Shown here: piece by piece, positions 2,927 through 33,720 of the stretch | How positions within the stretch are numbered: the first letter of the stretch is position 1 | Layout of the letters: each line of letters starts with the position of its first letter | NCBI GenBank assembly: GCA_964388035.1 | Contig: CAYLZE010000004.1 | Location: 1 to 64,000 of the forward strand | Direction of reading: 5' to 3' | From: an uncultured archaeon | GTDB lineage: Archaea; Asgardarchaeota; Lokiarchaeia; Sigyniarchaeales; SOKP01 | DNA length: 64,000 bases | Notes under the pieces: generated by a model | Seen by the model: the letters and a program-made list of their open reading frames with translations, nothing else | What the model was told of the DNA's origin: nothing | Databases searched by the model: none | Position numbers and translations under genes: made by a program

Positions 2927-3895
2927 TTATATTAAATCTTTAATGACGTCCTTGTAAAACTCTAATTGAGGATTCAGCTCAAAAGCGTTCGGAAAATACA
3001 TGAAAAAATTAGAAAATCCTAAATTTATAAATTCTTCCATAATTTGCCTTAAATTTTCACTGGTTCCAATTAAGAATTTATCTCGATAATGAGATAAGGT
3101 ACAATTTGGAGCAAGTGTTCTTTTCAAGTGATCATCGATTTTCTTTTTTTCCCAATTTATTATAACAGGACATAATAAGGTCTTTTCAATATTTTCATCA
3201 TCTCTATCACACTCCTTCGAGTATTCTTTTAAAGTAGCGAGTTTTTTCTTGAGATACTGAATGCCCTTGATGGCGTTAAAATTTGACTTGTCTGCATGCT
3301 TCGCAACTATTTTTAAGGTCAATTTTTCTCCTCCCCCTCCTATCAAAATTTTCGGCGGATTTTGAATGGGTTTGGGATAATTTAAAGCACCTTGTATTTG
3401 ATAATATTTTCCCATATAACTTGTTTCCTCCTCGGTCCACATTTTTTTAACAATTTCCACTGCTTCTTCTAACATTTCCAGTCTGATGGAATTCTTCAAA
3501 TAGGTATAACCAAATGAAGAGTATTCCCTTTCATGCCATCCCGCCCCGATTCCAAATTCCATTCTTCCATTAGATATAACATCTAAGACAGAGGAAATTT
3601 TCGCTAGATATGCAGGATTGCGGTAGGAATTACATGACACTAACTGTCCTAATCGAATTTTAGAGGTTATGGCTGCTAATGCTGTTAACGTGGTAAAGCA
3701 TTCAAACACGCTTTCTTTCATTTCTATGGGATAAGAATGAAAATGATCATATAATACCGCAGAATCATAGCCTAATTTTTCAACTTGCTGAGTGATTTTT
3801 GCTATTAATTTCCATTGATCATGGCTTTTCAATCCATCGGGCAAATCAAGACGCCATCCTTGAGGAACGATCATTCCGAACTTTAATTTCGTCAT
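2927..3895 (-). CDS. LLM-class (probably F420-dependent) oxidoreductase
   Basis: KFGMIVPQGWRLDL, YDHFH, RNPAYLAK, GIGAGWHEREY, IGGGGEKLTLKIVAKHAD. Confidence 0.9.
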   Translation of the reverse strand: MTKLKFGMIVPQGWRLDLPDGLKSHDQWKLIAKITQQVEKLGYDSAVLYDHFHSYPIEMKESVFECFTTLTALAAITSKIRLGQLVSCNSYRNPAYLAKISSVLDVISNGRMEFGIGAGWHEREYSSFGYTYLKNSIRLEMLEEAVEIVKKMWTEEETSYMGKYYQIQGALNYPKPIQNPPKILIGGGGEKLTLKIVAKHADKSNFNAIKGIQYLKKKLATLKEYSKECDRDDENIEKTLLCPVIINWEKKKIDDHLKRTLAPNCTLSHYRDKFLIGTSENLRQIMEEFINLGFSNFFMYFPNAFELNPQLEFYKDVIKDLI

Positions 3896-3952
3896 CTTCT
3901 AAAATCTACCTTCTCTAAACCTATAAAAAAGAGTAAAATGGTATAGTTGATA

Positions 3953-4792
3953 TTAATTCCATTGAAATTCTTTATTAAGATCTGCGGCCAGAGAGTTAAA
4001 CAATTCTTCATGAGCAGGTAAAAGTTCTTTTTTCCATCTCAGATCTAATTTAATTTCTAAAGGATGATCCACATAATATTGTCTCTGATGACCATTTAAT
4101 TGTAAATAAGTTAAATTTTGATTAACCTTGGTGATTAAGGATTGCGTACCCGTGTTACCTCCTAAAGGATGGTGCGTGAATCGATAATATTCCTCTAAAT
4201 TTGATTTGTAATTAATCTCAAGAAAATTACAAGTTTCCTTCGCTAACTTGGCGGGATTTGTGGCAAGTTCCTCATAGTGAATTTTCATTTTCTTACCATT
4301 AGACTCATTGAATAATTTATTTGTTAATTCTATTTGATTTTTCCAATCCTTGATTAATTGGATAACGTCCATGTCAGGATATTTTCTTATTCTTGAATTA
4401 ATTACTGCCCTTCCATCTCTTTGAATATAGATAAGGTATATTTCAGTTGAGTTTTTTTTAAGAATATCAATTTTTTCAGTTATCCATCTCGTATTTTTGG
4501 TTGAATCGATGATAATGGGTTTATTAGTAAGCCTTGAAAGTTGTTCATATAAATCGATTGAACCTTTTGGATCTACTCTGCTCCAAATAGGACAAGATGG
4601 TCCACATAACTTACATATTCCCGATTTCTTTCCATCGCTTGGTTTATTAATGAAGCGTGATTTATTTGCTTCCCCCGCATAAAAACAAGAAGAATGACTT
4701 CCTAAAATTAACCCTAATAGCGTGGATCCTGAATGACCTGCTCCACAAATGAAACATGTTTTCTCATTTGATCTTTCGGGTTTTTTAGTCAT
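3953..4792 (-). CDS. Sulfotransferase family protein
   Basis: 5'-PSB loop CGAGHSGSTLL, IIDSTK, RDGRAVINS 3'-PB motif, HYEELATNP. Confidence 0.85.
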   Translation of the reverse strand: MTKKPERSNEKTCFICGAGHSGSTLLGLILGSHSSCFYAGEANKSRFINKPSDGKKSGICKLCGPSCPIWSRVDPKGSIDLYEQLSRLTNKPIIIDSTKNTRWITEKIDILKKNSTEIYLIYIQRDGRAVINSRIRKYPDMDVIQLIKDWKNQIELTNKLFNESNGKKMKIHYEELATNPAKLAKETCNFLEINYKSNLEEYYRFTHHPLGGNTGTQSLITKVNQNLTYLQLNGHQRQYYVDHPLEIKLDLRWKKELLPAHEELFNSLAADLNKEFQWN

Positions 4793-4815
4793 GGCAAACT
4801 AATAATAGATATTGG

Positions 4816-6201
4816 TTATAATAATTCCGCCAATTCCTCCTTCAATTTAACATCAGGAAAAGGCTCGTGGATTATTTTCAGGTTTAAAAAAGTGCAAAGC
4901 TTTTCCCATCCATCTCCTGCACAGATATCCATAATTAATAAAGAATTGGAGCGATCCTTGAAATATTCCAGCACATTTGCCAGATGAAGATCATAAACAT
5001 ATGATAAACGCTCTTCATTGAAAACATATGTGCCATACACGGCAGCTCTTAGAAATCTGCGCATTTTAAGATGGATGTCATTTTGTTTTGGATCCTCAAA
5101 AGGAGGTCTTTCTTCCCAATGTTTTTTAAGAGATTGGAGCCACGATGATTTTTCTCGAATAGTCAGAATGAATTTACTATTAGGATAATGCTTATCTAAC
5201 TGAACATAAAATGGTGATACCGTTATATCCGAAATTCCATCATAGTCGTTCAATATGGATAAATCATACTTCCCAGTTGTGAGTTCTTCGAATGTTATTT
5301 TGTCATCGGGATAATGAGAAATATTATATCCTAACATGTCTAAGGCAAGGGTAAGACTCTTAGTACTTGTTCTACTAAGACCGATACAAAAAATTTTCTC
5401 TTTTTTATTTTCAAATTGCCCCGTTATGTTAATGGCTGCCTTTAAATCCAAGACTTCCTGAAGTTTTAATACTTTTTTTTCTTTTAACCCCATTTTATCA
5501 AGTTCCGATTTCGCGATGGCCGGAAGTGTCTGGATATAATCCGCAACCACTTTGGGAGTGGCATCCAAGGGTACATTATTCTTCGCATGATTTATTGCTT
5601 TTCTTGCAACTAAAAAATCGGTATCATCATATTTCCAATTCTCAACACAGATCTGAAGTTTAAATTTTTGATATGCATTTCGACTTCTTAGCTCTCTAAT
5701 GGCATATTTAAGGTAAACTTGGTGATAATATTGACAAAAATCATGCAATATTTTGAATTTTTTAAAGGTCTTTCCTTCCTTAAGTTTTTCCAGTGCAAGA
5801 TTTCGCCTTCGAGATTCAGGTCTGAGGATATACTTCAAATCATCTTCTGGCATATTTATCTGCTTCATGGTTTGAACTACATCCATCCGCGTAACATGCA
5901 CCCCCATGTGGACAAATCCTCTGAATTTATCCAAAACAAAGCAATCCACGTACGGTAAAGTATTCTTATTCAAAAATGGTCTCATATCTTCGAAAATGAA
6001 GCAATCAGCGTCCATGAACACCACGTAATCAGTATCATCATTGTACTGAATTTTCATGATTTCTTCCATGGTTCGGGAAAAAGGAGTGATATTTTCAATC
6101 AAATGCACTTTATCAGGGCTGATATTTTTTAACGCAAAATCTAAAGCAATATTTCTGGTACGTTCACCATTCGACCTAAAAACTAATTCAATTTTTTTCA
6201 T
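4816..6201 (-). CDS. Fusion: N-terminal GT-A glycosyltransferase-like domain + C-terminal sulfotransferase-like domain
   Basis: N-term YVVFMDADC (DxD); C-term IFCIGLSRTSTKSL, YPNSKFILTIRE..SWLQS, GDGWEKLCTFL...PFP. Confidence 0.75.
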   Translation of the reverse strand: MKKIELVFRSNGERTRNIALDFALKNISPDKVHLIENITPFSRTMEEIMKIQYNDDTDYVVFMDADCFIFEDMRPFLNKNTLPYVDCFVLDKFRGFVHMGVHVTRMDVVQTMKQINMPEDDLKYILRPESRRRNLALEKLKEGKTFKKFKILHDFCQYYHQVYLKYAIRELRSRNAYQKFKLQICVENWKYDDTDFLVARKAINHAKNNVPLDATPKVVADYIQTLPAIAKSELDKMGLKEKKVLKLQEVLDLKAAINITGQFENKKEKIFCIGLSRTSTKSLTLALDMLGYNISHYPDDKITFEELTTGKYDLSILNDYDGISDITVSPFYVQLDKHYPNSKFILTIREKSSWLQSLKKHWEERPPFEDPKQNDIHLKMRRFLRAAVYGTYVFNEERLSYVYDLHLANVLEYFKDRSNSLLIMDICAGDGWEKLCTFLNLKIIHEPFPDVKLKEELAELL

Positions 6202-28293: not shown

Positions 28294-29391
28294 ATGAATG
28301 CTAGCGTCTATCATGAAAAGGATGGAGATCTCTCCTTACTAAAAGGGAAAACCATTGGAATAATAGGATATGGGAACCAAGCGAAGGCCCAGGCTTTAAA
28401 CATGAGAGATTCCGGCTTAAATGTTATTATTGGGACTGATGATGATAAATTTAAAGAAAGAGCTCGGAATGATAATTTTCCGGTACATGATATTGCGACT
28501 CTTTTTGTTAAGACTGATATCTATTTTTTATTAGTTTCCGACCAACAGATTGGGAAGATATTTGAAGAGAAAATTAAACCATACCTGAAAGAAAATGACA
28601 CGATAGTTTTTTATAGTGGTTACACCATTACTTTCCATGAAATATCCCTTCCGAAAAATGTTGATATACTCTTGATTTCTCCGAGAGTAACGGGAGAAGC
28701 ATTGAGAGAAAATTATTTGAATAAAAAAGGAGTATTTAGCTTTATTCATGTCCATCAAGATGCCACAGGAGGAGCTAAGGAAAACTTATTAGCATTAAGT
28801 AGAGCAACAGGAGCTCTTTCGAGAAGTGGTTTAGATATAACTTTCAGACAACAAGCTATTTTAAACTTATTTTTTGAACATACTTTTATTCATGGTTTTC
28901 TTCAGATCATGATGCGATCAATCCTCACGTTAATTGAGAAAGGGTATCCCCCCGAAGCGATATTCGTAGAACTTTTTCTGTCTGGAGAAGGTGGATATAC
29001 CCTTGATAAGGTCATTGACGTGGGCATGATAAAGCAAATGAACTTCCATTCCAAGACCTCCCAATATGGGCAAATGAGTCGCGGGATCAAATTTAGAAAT
29101 GTGGCCGGCGAAATTGGAGAAATTCAAAAGGAGATTTTTCACCAAATTGAAAATGGAGAATTTGTTAAGGAATGGGACCATGAGCTCAGTAAATTGAAAC
29201 TTCAAATTATGAAGTATTTTGCATCTAAAGTCAAGTTTGCTAAAATTGAAAGTCAGGTACGTGAAAATCTGGGATTTGAAAAAGAGGATTTTTCAAAAGA
29301 GGTTAAGTTTCCTGAGAAAGATAAATTAAACGCACATCCCGAATTAAATGATTTCGTTGAAAATGTAAAAGCATATTATAGAGATTTATAA
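28294..29391 (+). CDS. ilvC: Ketol-acid reductoisomerase-like protein A (lacks the D190 equivalent; keeps E226/E230)
   Basis: GIIGYGNQAKAQALNMRDSG; knot domain LNLFFEH, VELFLSGE, HSKTSQYG. Confidence 0.8.
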   Translation: MNASVYHEKDGDLSLLKGKTIGIIGYGNQAKAQALNMRDSGLNVIIGTDDDKFKERARNDNFPVHDIATLFVKTDIYFLLVSDQQIGKIFEEKIKPYLKENDTIVFYSGYTITFHEISLPKNVDILLISPRVTGEALRENYLNKKGVFSFIHVHQDATGGAKENLLALSRATGALSRSGLDITFRQQAILNLFFEHTFIHGFLQIMMRSILTLIEKGYPPEAIFVELFLSGEGGYTLDKVIDVGMIKQMNFHSKTSQYGQMSRGIKFRNVAGEIGEIQKEIFHQIENGEFVKEWDHELSKLKLQIMKYFASKVKFAKIESQVRENLGFEKEDFSKEVKFPEKDKLNAHPELNDFVENVKAYYRDL

Positions 29392-29407
29392 CAAAGGTGA
29401 TTAAAAA

Positions 29408-30499
29408 TTGACAACTATTTATAGAGAAAAGGATGGAGATTTATCTCTTTTGAAGAATGTGACTATTGGAATGATTGGATATGGAAATCAATCAAGAAGT
29501 CAAGCCCTTAACTTGCGAGATCAAGGTGCCACAGTTATTGTTGGCAATAAAGAGGATGATTATAAAAAAAGGGCAGAGGAAGATGGATTTATCACCTCTA
29601 CTATTTCTGAAGTAGTAATGAAAGCTCAAGTACTGTTCTTCTTAATTCCGGATGAAATAATGGGTGAAGTATTCGAAAAGCAAATAAGACCATATCTAAA
29701 ACAAAACGATGCTATCATCTTTGCAAGTGGATATAATATCGCTTTCGGTTTAATCTCTCCTCCTGAATTTATCGATGTTCTATTAGTTGCCCCTCGCATG
29801 ATTGGAATTGGAGTGCGGGAGACTTTCTTGAATAAGGAAGGATATTTTTCCTTCATTGGAGTACATCAAGATGCATCAGGACATGCTAAAGAAAAACTAT
29901 TGACCTTAAGCAAGGGTGTTGGTGGCCTGGCAAAAGCAGGAATTGAAGTCTCTTTTAAAGAAGAAGCAGTATTAGATCTTTTTTCGGAACAAGGATTTGG
30001 TCCTGCGTTCAGCCAAATAATGATGAAACCAATAAGCATCTTGTTAAATGCGGGGTATCCGGAAGAAGCAGTCCTTATTGAAATGGTCCTCTCGGGAAAA
30101 ATGAAACGCGCCTTTAAAAGCATCAAAGATCACGGTATTATCAATCAAATTCATTTCATGTCCAAAAGAGCTCAGTATGGGGCAATGATAAAGGGTTTAC
30201 AGCTTAGGAACACGATTGATAAAATTGTAAGCATTCAAAAGACCGTGATTGAGAACATCGAGAATGGGGGTTTTGCGAAAGAATGGGAAAAGGTTACATC
30301 GAAAATCAAGTTTAAATTTATAAAATTCATGGCTTCGAAAGTAGGATTTGCAAAGCTAGAAAAAAGGGTACGAACCAGCCTTGGAATGCCCGAAGTTGAT
30401 CTATGGAAAGAAGTTCCCTATCCTAGTGAAAAAGAATTAAAACAATCTCAAATTTTAAAGAAAGAAATGCAGGAGTTTCGAAATTTTCCCGAATTTTAA
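29408..30499 (+). CDS. ilvC: Ketol-acid reductoisomerase-like protein B (keeps D190/E194; E230 equivalent is Lys)
   Basis: GMIGYGNQSRSQALNLRDQG, LIPDE, VAPRMIG, LDLFSEQ, IEMVLSGK; TTG start behind AAGGTGA. Confidence 0.82.
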   Translation: MTTIYREKDGDLSLLKNVTIGMIGYGNQSRSQALNLRDQGATVIVGNKEDDYKKRAEEDGFITSTISEVVMKAQVLFFLIPDEIMGEVFEKQIRPYLKQNDAIIFASGYNIAFGLISPPEFIDVLLVAPRMIGIGVRETFLNKEGYFSFIGVHQDASGHAKEKLLTLSKGVGGLAKAGIEVSFKEEAVLDLFSEQGFGPAFSQIMMKPISILLNAGYPEEAVLIEMVLSGKMKRAFKSIKDHGIINQIHFMSKRAQYGAMIKGLQLRNTIDKIVSIQKTVIENIENGGFAKEWEKVTSKIKFKFIKFMASKVGFAKLEKRVRTSLGMPEVDLWKEVPYPSEKELKQSQILKKEMQEFRNFPEF

Positions 30500-32266: not shown

Positions 32267-33720
32267 ATGTTGGTTACTGATAAGGAATATAATGAAATTG
32301 AAGATATTCCCGAACCTTTTAAGATAAAAAAATGGAAAGATGTGTTTAAATTTCTCTTAGTCCTGGAATCATTGCCATGGGTTTAGGTCTCGGTACTGGA
32401 GAAATTGTATCAGGTCCTTTTTTAATTGTAAAAAATGGACCTTCCATTTTATGGATTGCTTTGCTTTCCATTCTGCTTCAGACCGTAACCTCCATTAGTG
32501 CTTCAAAATACACCATTCTTACCGGCGAACCATTTCAAATCGGAATTAATCGTTTATGGTTAAGTAATAAAGCTTGGACCGTCATTTGGATCTTGCTTGG
32601 AGGCGTGTCCGTGATGTTCCCTTATTACATGGCTCTGCTAGGAATGACCTTTGTGGCAATTATTATTCAAGGTGTACCTGGACTTGCACAGCAATCTCTT
32701 TGGGTTGTTTTTTCCTTAATATCCATAGGGATTACGATATTACCGTTATTTCTGGGAAAGAAAGTTATGAAAACGTTAGGATTAATGTTCTTTTTACTGC
32801 ATTTTCTTATTATTATCCCTCTTTTGATCATTCTTACCATAATTTTTGTGCCATCAAATGTGATTTGGGAAGTATTTTCGGGTTATTTTAGGTTTGGTTA
32901 TTTACCTGAAAATGCAGATTGGTTAGCCATGGGTGCTGTAGCTGGATTTGCAGGATTAGCTGCTTCTGCGGGAATGTCAATTTCTAACTATTACAGAGAT
33001 TCGGGATGGGGGATGTCTGAAAAGCTCGGTTATATCCCGGGCATGGTGGGTGGCAAGAAGGTAAAATTCGAAGTAAAAGGATACATGCCAAAAGTAAATG
33101 CAGAAAATAAAAAACGAGCCAAAAAGTGGTATAGGTACATTTTACTTGAACTCATTCCAATTTTTTTCGTTAGAAGTTTGGCAACGATGGTATTTCCTTG
33201 TGCATTATATTACTATTTTGTTCCGCAAGAAGCTGCAACAGAAGAAACTTTTGGATTTACCGCAGTTTTAGCCCAGAACATGACGGTCGTGTTGCCCTTT
33301 GCGTTTTGGATAATCATTTTCATGCTTTTTGTGATTTTTTGGGTTGATGGTACGGGTGTGGTTGATGGCGTGGTGCGCCAATTTGCCAACATTTTATGGA
33401 ACAGTTTTCCTAAATTGAGCGTTCGATTCAAAGGTGATATTAGAAAGTTATACTATGGTCTACTTTGTCTCTTTACAAGTATTTGGGTGCTTTTGATTCT
33501 AACGGGCACGCCCCCGGTGACCATGGTATTATATGCAGGATCCTTAGCAAATATAGGAGGGGTCATCTTTGCAATTGGTTTGCTGGCCGTAAATTATAAG
33601 TTTTTACCCAAAGAATATCGATTTTCCATGATAGAAGTAATTGTAACAATCGTTTCTATTCTATTTTTTGGATTTTTTTTAGTAAATGCACTATTAGCCA
33701 CGGTTGGAATAGTCTTTTAA
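32267..33720 (+). pseudogene. Nramp-like divalent metal transporter with a 1-nt frameshift near 32360
   Basis: The ATG 32267 frame (MLVTDKE...KDVFKFLL) joins PGIIAMGLGLGTGE only if one base is added (tta g[g]t cct gga restores LGPG); may be an assembly error. Confidence 0.75.

Follow-up and report, generated by a model that had tools for sequence, protein, structure and literature searches.

Two adjacent ketol-acid reductoisomerase paralogues with complementary active-site losses in an Asgard archaeon, and the heterodimer they may form

Introduction

The ketol-acid reductoisomerases (KARIs) are divided into two classes according to how the catalytic site is put together. In class I enzymes the site is made from the N and C domains of one subunit together with the C domain of a second, and in class II enzymes an internal duplication stands in for that second subunit (PMC13753588). 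This article deals with two adjacent KARI-like genes, referred to here as A and B, that were found in a stretch of DNA from an uncultured Asgard archaeon. The stretch as a whole, 64,000 nucleotides of contig CAYLZE010000004.1 (assembly GCA_964388035.1), is called the window. Each of the two genes appears to have lost the half of the active site that the other has kept, and the pair probably, at about three chances in four, encodes an obligate intertwined class I heterodimer that would contain one catalytic site and one dead site.

The division of the class I site between two chains rests on solved structures, from which the ligands can be assigned to one subunit or the other (PMC5940873, PMC13753588). 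The Mg(I) ligands are D191 and E195, of which D191 bridges both metals (PMC5940873), and in MtKARI the residues Asp83 and Gly134 hold the nicotinamide ribose (PMC8615647). Throughout this article the ligand positions are given in SaKARI numbering; the term cis refers to the Rossmann domain together with E186, D190 and E194, and the term trans to E226, E230 and the S-x-T helix. An earlier reading of the window, made from the sequence only, had taken as its premise that the Rossmann domain and D190/E194 act in cis, and E226/E230 and the S-x-T helix in trans, and this agrees with the literature.

Class II KARIs, such as E. coli IlvC (PDB 1yrl and 3ulk) and the plant enzymes, build one site from two knot-domain copies that have diverged, of which the first supplies the D/E ligands and the second the E/E ligands and the Ser (PMC13753588, PMC5940873). 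The underlying logic is duplication followed by division of labor, as in A and B. However, in class II the duplication lies within one chain of ~490 amino acids that has a single Rossmann domain, whereas A and B are two genes with a Rossmann domain each. Neither protein is a class II enzyme by profile, as A scores 79 and B 72 bits against the class II model NF003557, for which the cut-off is 713.

The best solved match to both proteins is the KARI of Saccharolobus solfataricus (PDB 6jcv, with related entries; E = 3e-53 for A and 5e-61 for B), which has been cited as cofactor-bispecific and dodecameric (PMC8615647). The likeness extends to the fold, to the FASGY and APRM motifs, which place Ser and Arg where most KARIs have H107 and K130, to the HSxTSQYG helix, and to a stretch between E226 and the E230 equivalent that is longer by two residues. 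Both proteins belong to this Ser/Arg, or Sulfolobus-type, subfamily, B with FASGY and APRM and A with FYSGY and SPRV; the helix motif is intact in A (HSKTSQYG) and degenerate in B. The Sulfolobus enzyme, however, is a homo-oligomer with all of its ligands on every chain, whereas A and B carry one half each. The single-copy KARIs of Asgard archaea (for example L013 of genome G256, L016 of G263, L011 and L020-L035) are 50-61% identical to A and B, match them in length and in the C-terminal tail, and likewise have no ilv neighbors. Unlike A and B, they are intact at nine diagnostic positions and have no A-type partner.

Heteromers of paralogues, in which a duplicated homodimer with composite sites has ended up with one working and one degenerate site, are found in several other systems. 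In trypanosomatids both deoxyhypusine synthase (DHSc/DHSp) and AdoMetDC/prozyme consist of an enzyme and a half-dead paralogue, and heterodimeric ABC exporters combine one consensus with one degenerate ATP site. The folds and the chemistry of these heteromers are unrelated to those of A and B. KARI has been studied for decades as a target for drugs, herbicides and biofuel engineering and, to our knowledge, always in the form of a class I homo-oligomer or of a class II chain with an internal duplication. A literature search on heteromeric KARI, Asgard KARI and Sso-KARI, which had most subscription journals outside its coverage, returned no description of such a pair.

The gene pair and its active-site residues

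The genome that carries the window, G000, is a 5.47 Mb assembly that is 96.7% complete. Two tandem KARI-like genes had been described 16 nt apart, and both open reading frames are present with a gap of exactly that length.

28294-29391, + strand: gene A, 365 amino acids, ATG start; class I KARI paralogue, cis-defective and trans-competent
29392-29407, + strand: spacer between A and B, 16 nt, with a Shine-Dalgarno-like GGTGAT at 29396-29401, 6 nt before the TTG of B
29408-30499, + strand: gene B, 363 amino acids, TTG start; class I KARI paralogue, cis-competent and trans-defective

The spacer with its Shine-Dalgarno-like element is consistent with the co-transcription of A and B. The two proteins are 48% identical over 343 residues without gaps, and each is composed of a KARI_N Rossmann domain (PF07991; 152.8 bits for A and 170.3 bits for B) followed by a single KARI_C knot domain (PF01450; 55.7 and 59.1 bits, cut-off 29.1), which is the class I architecture of ~330-365 amino acids. 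No KARI_N or KARI_C gene beyond A and B was found in the G000 assembly. The residues found at the ligand positions are as follows.

E186 position: Q187 in A (28852-28854), E186 in B (29963-29965)
D190 position: N191 in A (28864-28866), D190 in B (29975-29977)
E194 position: E195 in A, E194 in B (29987-29989)
E226 position: E226 in A (28969-28971), E225 in B (30080-30082)
E230 equivalent: E232 in A (28987-28989), K231 in B (30098-30100)
H-S-x-T-S helix: H252-S253-K-T255-S256 in A (29047-29061), M251-S252-K-R254-A255 in B (30158-30172)

The chief losses in A are Q187 and N191, and its cofactor loop is unconserved from T48 onward. B retains GYGNQ, the loop GN47..D50, P81-D82-E83, A128-P-R130-M-I-G, E186, D190 and E194. 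The complete set of metal and substrate ligands (E186, D190, E194, E226, E230 and S-x-T) is therefore available only when A and B are combined.

The motif strings that the sequence-only reading quoted are all found, namely GTDDD, LVSDQ, NLFFEH, VELFLSGE and HSKTSQYG in A, and GNKEDD, LIPDE, VAPRMIG, DLFSEQ, EMVLSGK and MSKRAQYG in B. What they signify is in places narrower than had been claimed. Within the change from DLFxEQ to NLFFEH in A, read as a loss of cis ligands, D190 is indeed replaced (N191) but E194 is kept (E195), and the Q to H step is no sign of loss, as the same change is seen in the active Sulfolobus enzyme (DLMSEH). The loss of E186 in A (Q187) was not part of that reading and was found here. 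The change from LIPDE to LVSDQ does alter the P and the E but leaves the ribose-binding Asp (Asp83 of MtKARI) in place, which weakens the case for counting it as a catalytic loss. In B the supposed loss of S-x-T holds for the Thr (R254) but not for the first Ser, which is retained (S252).

Conservation of the reciprocal pattern

A total of 400 Asgard genomes were scanned, of which 156 have a KARI match, mostly as a single copy, and the KARI genes of ~80 further genomes were fetched for the comparison with singletons. The profile scores of A-type and other KARIs are not cleanly bimodal, so that the genes were classified by their residues. Of the 400 genomes, 11 have an A-type gene that is followed, downstream and on the same strand, by another KARI gene, and the two are tightly linked in nine of these; in eight genomes other than G000 the gap between A and B is 1-50 nt. 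Four further A-type proteins are encoded on metagenome contigs, each adjoining a second KARI gene, and on one of these contigs, that which encodes P0018, B precedes A. For two of these four contigs the DNA was at hand.

The same reciprocal loss is seen in all 11 pair-bearing genomes and in both of these metagenome pairs. This bears out the expectation, raised by the sequence-only reading, that the pattern would be conserved in orthologous pairs. In the singletons, in contrast, the nine diagnostic positions read EDEEEHSTS in each of the 82 complete frames examined, and deviations are confined to pairs. Neither a lone A-type nor a lone degenerate B-type gene was found among the Asgard genomes examined, and the 400-genome scan found no third KARI in the pair genomes. 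In genome G151 the two genes lie 2.7 kb apart (L041:3171-5945), with open reading frames at 3571-4497 (- strand) and 4786-5727 (+ strand) between them, and both keep their part of the reciprocal pattern.

The A protein of every pair is without D190 (N, S, K, Q, E, G or A instead) and without E186 (Q or A), and E226, the E230 equivalent and HSxTS are kept in 44 of 44 A-type proteins. In the paired-B proteins E186, D190 and E194 are kept in 12 of 12. The B protein of every pair also has LIPDE and APRMIG, whereas the E230 equivalent is gone (K, N, Q, T, W or A) and so is the Thr of the helix (R, Q or K). The central argument lies here: with the trans ligands of A invariant and its own cis half dead, these ligands can be of use only in a site completed by the cis half of another chain, and in the pair genomes B is the only candidate for this donor.

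A homodimer of B might instead work alone, either as a reductoisomerase or as a plain 2-keto-acid reductase that has no need of E230 and S-x-T, with A acting as a non-catalytic partner or regulator or having a role elsewhere. B does retain the whole cofactor site as well as E186, D190, E194 and E225, and it evolves more slowly than A. Such an arrangement is quite unlikely, as it leaves unexplained why A should hold its trans ligands invariant after losing the cis ones, since in an A2 dimer these would face a dead half-site. Moreover, the E230 and Thr positions drift freely in B, as is expected of residues that are no longer in use.

Selection and origin of the pair

Losses were counted over 99 columns that are at least 90% conserved in the single-copy relatives and the outgroup, and 68 of these are kept by both the A and the paired-B clades. 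The remaining losses fall in a ratio of cis to trans of 19:3 in A and 3:9 in B (Fisher p = 6e-4), so that the reciprocal pattern is more than would be expected by chance. In the A clade they affect the third Gly of GxGxxG, N48 and D51 of the cofactor loop, the P and E of LIPDE, the A-x-x-M-I of APRMIG, E186, D190, E194 and a Pro, all of them before residue ~200. In the B clade they are concentrated at 231-256 and include the E230 equivalent, K239 and the H, S, T and S of the helix. The lost positions are occupied by many different residues, as expected under released constraint. A similar contrast appears in ten matched genomes, in which the N domain is 49% identical among the A proteins versus 65% among the B proteins, whereas the trans segment 223-262 is 76% identical among the A proteins, where it is the best-conserved part, versus 49% among the B proteins, where it is the worst.

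The ratio of nonsynonymous to synonymous substitution (dN/dS), taken only where dS is unsaturated, is 0.13-0.19 for A and 0.07-0.08 for B, values low enough to indicate that both genes are under purifying selection. The pair could in principle be a set of redundant duplicates that are decaying toward pseudogenes, and in one genome, G163 (L039:651-2575; 86% complete), both members are interrupted by stop codons (one TGA and two TAA), which reflect either a decaying pair or assembly errors. As a general explanation, however, decay is highly improbable and already conflicts with the purifying selection. Ten genomes, drawn from four or more Asgard families, have open frames, conservation of the complementary residues is strict, and the pair genomes carry no other KARI.

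A tree of 126 sequences, obtained by an IQ-TREE quick search, groups the 44 A-type proteins into one clade (Shimodaira-Hasegawa-like approximate likelihood ratio test, SH-aLRT, 100) and the 12 paired-B proteins into another (96). The intact singletons of G256 and G263 (L013 and L016) are sister to the paired-B proteins (88), and the A clade, the paired-B proteins and these two singletons together form a clade (90) that is nested among the singleton Asgard KARIs. As the A-type and the paired-B proteins each form a single clade, one old duplication is indicated, which would have been that of an intact Asgard KARI; no second origin of the reciprocal pattern was found among the 126 sequences. From the line leading to the G256 and G263 singletons, A seems to have disappeared at a stage when B was undamaged. 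This placement suggests an order of events in which the cis half of A was lost first, followed by the trans half of B, which by then would have served only the dead site and would have decayed only in the lineage that kept A.

Prediction of the complex

A and B were folded together, each supplied as the alignment of its own clade, and gave a score of 0.90 in three runs, against 0.00 for the best control. A value of 0.90 was attained by 58 of 80 solved complexes and by 2 of 110 mismatched pairs, counts that hold only roughly here because own alignments were used. The contacts agree between runs to at least 94%, and the local confidence (pLDDT) of the partner is at least 88. In the predicted complex, residues 81-83, 107-109 and 130-135 of B are in contact with chain A, as are their counterparts in A with chain B, a pattern that matches the class I geometry.

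The proposed heterodimer

From these comparisons we infer that A and B form a heterodimer, that catalysis takes place at a single site, and what the substrate is likely to be. In the live site, the Rossmann domain of B would bind NAD(P)H, and E186, D190 and E194 of B would provide for metal I and supply the bridging Asp. A would contribute E226, E232 and the H-S-x-T-S helix, for metal II and the carboxylate of the substrate. The mirror site would consist of the Rossmann domain of A, with Q187 and N191, together with K231 and M-S-K-R-A of B, and it would be unable to bind the bridging pair of metals. A2 or B2 homodimers would each contain two defective sites.

Several points weigh against this reading. 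The fold score may reflect no more than the likeness of A and B to the many solved KARI homodimers, and it cannot rank AB against AA or BB. The 13 pairs all descend from one duplication and are not independent origins, so that the evidence resides in which sites have been kept and which lost. A fused A-B protein was not found among longer proteins, where the sole match is an unrelated fungal fusion. Both A and B fall below all of the NCBIfam equivalog cut-offs for ilvC, with 196.5 and 197.5 bits, respectively, against TIGR00465 (cut-off 226) and 215.8 and 230.4 bits against NF004017 (cut-off 336). In addition, A retains GYGNQ and the ribose-binding Asp, and the E226 equivalent of B (E225) is invariant in 12 of 12 paired-B proteins despite the decay of the other trans ligands. 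A simple dead-site model does not account for the latter; E225 may have a structural role, or some function may survive at the second site. With these residues retained, the dead site is perhaps not entirely inactive.

The second, non-catalytic site of an obligate A:B enzyme might have been retained for regulation, as a pocket that binds a nucleotide, a metal or an end product. The hints that point this way are the GYGNQ and ribose Asp of A, the invariant E225 of B, and replacements that the A clade has itself conserved, namely Q in place of E186 (38 of 44 proteins) and S before P-R (37 of 44). The idea is doubtful, but such a pocket would represent a catalytic site turned allosteric in a central-metabolism enzyme of Asgard archaea.

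Substrate, cofactor and pathway

The standard reaction of KARI (IlvC, EC 1.1.1.86) depends on Mg2+ and NAD(P)H and turns 2-acetolactate into 2,3-dihydroxyisovalerate. The heterodimer most likely performs this ordinary reaction, in which acetolactate or acetohydroxybutyrate is converted into its dihydroxy acid, between acetolactate synthase (ALS)-like and IlvD enzymes encoded elsewhere in the genome. This role is favored because the pair is the only KARI in the genome. The changes of H107 to S and K130 to R had been thought to hint at a non-standard substrate. FASGY and APRM are, however, also carried by 6jcv, by related bacterial KARIs and by all intact Asgard singletons, and since Ser and Arg are thus common to the whole subfamily they are uninformative on the substrate. 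A preference for NADH, at which the acidic cofactor loops had been thought to hint, is conjectural: the loop GNxxD[DE] of B occurs in the singletons too, and that of A shows no conservation.

G000 encodes three full IlvD paralogues at or near the ilvD cut-off and one fragment (contigs C1, C3, C107 and C54; L050-L053), as well as six ALS-like enzymes dependent on thiamine diphosphate (contigs C107, C73, C55, C27, C116 and C30; L054-L059). It also contains aminotransferase-IV-like and LeuB-like genes that fall below their cut-offs. IlvD and an ALS-like gene lie within ~7 kb of each other in G000 (C107) and in G067, G132 and G162, and in G067 and G132 it is the best ALS-like gene that adjoins IlvD.

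The pathway context also holds points that count against the proposed role. All of the ALS-like genes of G000 are below the curated cut-off (the best at 430 versus 538 bits) and an ALS small subunit was not found in this assembly, so that the physiological substrate is not certain. No ilv operon surrounds the pair here, nor is one found at the other pair loci or around the singletons. Together with the scores below the ilvC cut-offs, the lack of a canonical ALS and of ilv/leu neighbors would fit a pair, heterodimeric or not, that has left branched-chain amino acid synthesis and acts on another hydroxy- or keto-acid; the neighbors that do recur are transporters and aldehyde:ferredoxin oxidoreductase. 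This is nevertheless unlikely. The intact singleton Asgard KARIs share the same types of neighbor and are likewise without ilv operons, and the composite site would bring together every ligand of the Ser/Arg subfamily, of which the characterized Sulfolobus KARI is a member. Furthermore, the pair genomes have no other KARI and yet have IlvD beside ALS-like genes.

Neighboring genes

A gene resembling Nramp-family transporters is found in the window at 32273-33720 (+ strand), 1.9 kb downstream of B. It shares 70% identity with the gene that lies immediately upstream of A and B in G067, G072, G132 and L128, and the G067 orthologue scores 123 bits against NF037982. The first ~29 residues match in a different frame (32273-32359) from the remainder (32341-33693), which points to a frameshift, to an unusual start or to a mistake in the assembly.

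In several lineages NIPA/EamA-like transporter genes adjoin both pairs and singletons of Asgard KARIs (L046:3998-4816, L127:5274-6970, L011:620-1486 and L021:2585-3562). The recurrent linkage of KARI to the NIPA/EamA-like and Nramp-like transporters may perhaps relate to the supply of Mg2+ or to the export of an amino or keto acid. Aldehyde:ferredoxin oxidoreductase genes are located beside the G132 pair (L036:205-2316) and also adjoin the two singletons, both intact, that form the sister group of the paired-B proteins (L013:2-1366 and L016:2917-4092).

Significance

A pair of expression plasmids and the usual enzyme assay would be enough to put the predicted heterodimer to a direct test. Automated annotation names both genes either 'ketol-acid reductoisomerase' or 'NAD(P)-binding protein', and metabolic reconstructions may therefore misjudge the capacity of Asgard archaea for valine, isoleucine and pantothenate synthesis when only one of the two genes has been binned. 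If the proposed heterodimer is correct, a two-gene enzyme with one composite site would constitute a third KARI arrangement. Such an enzyme would likewise represent an extant intermediate on the route of duplication and division that lies behind class II, and it would illustrate clearly how reciprocal loss can leave paralogues unable to do without each other.

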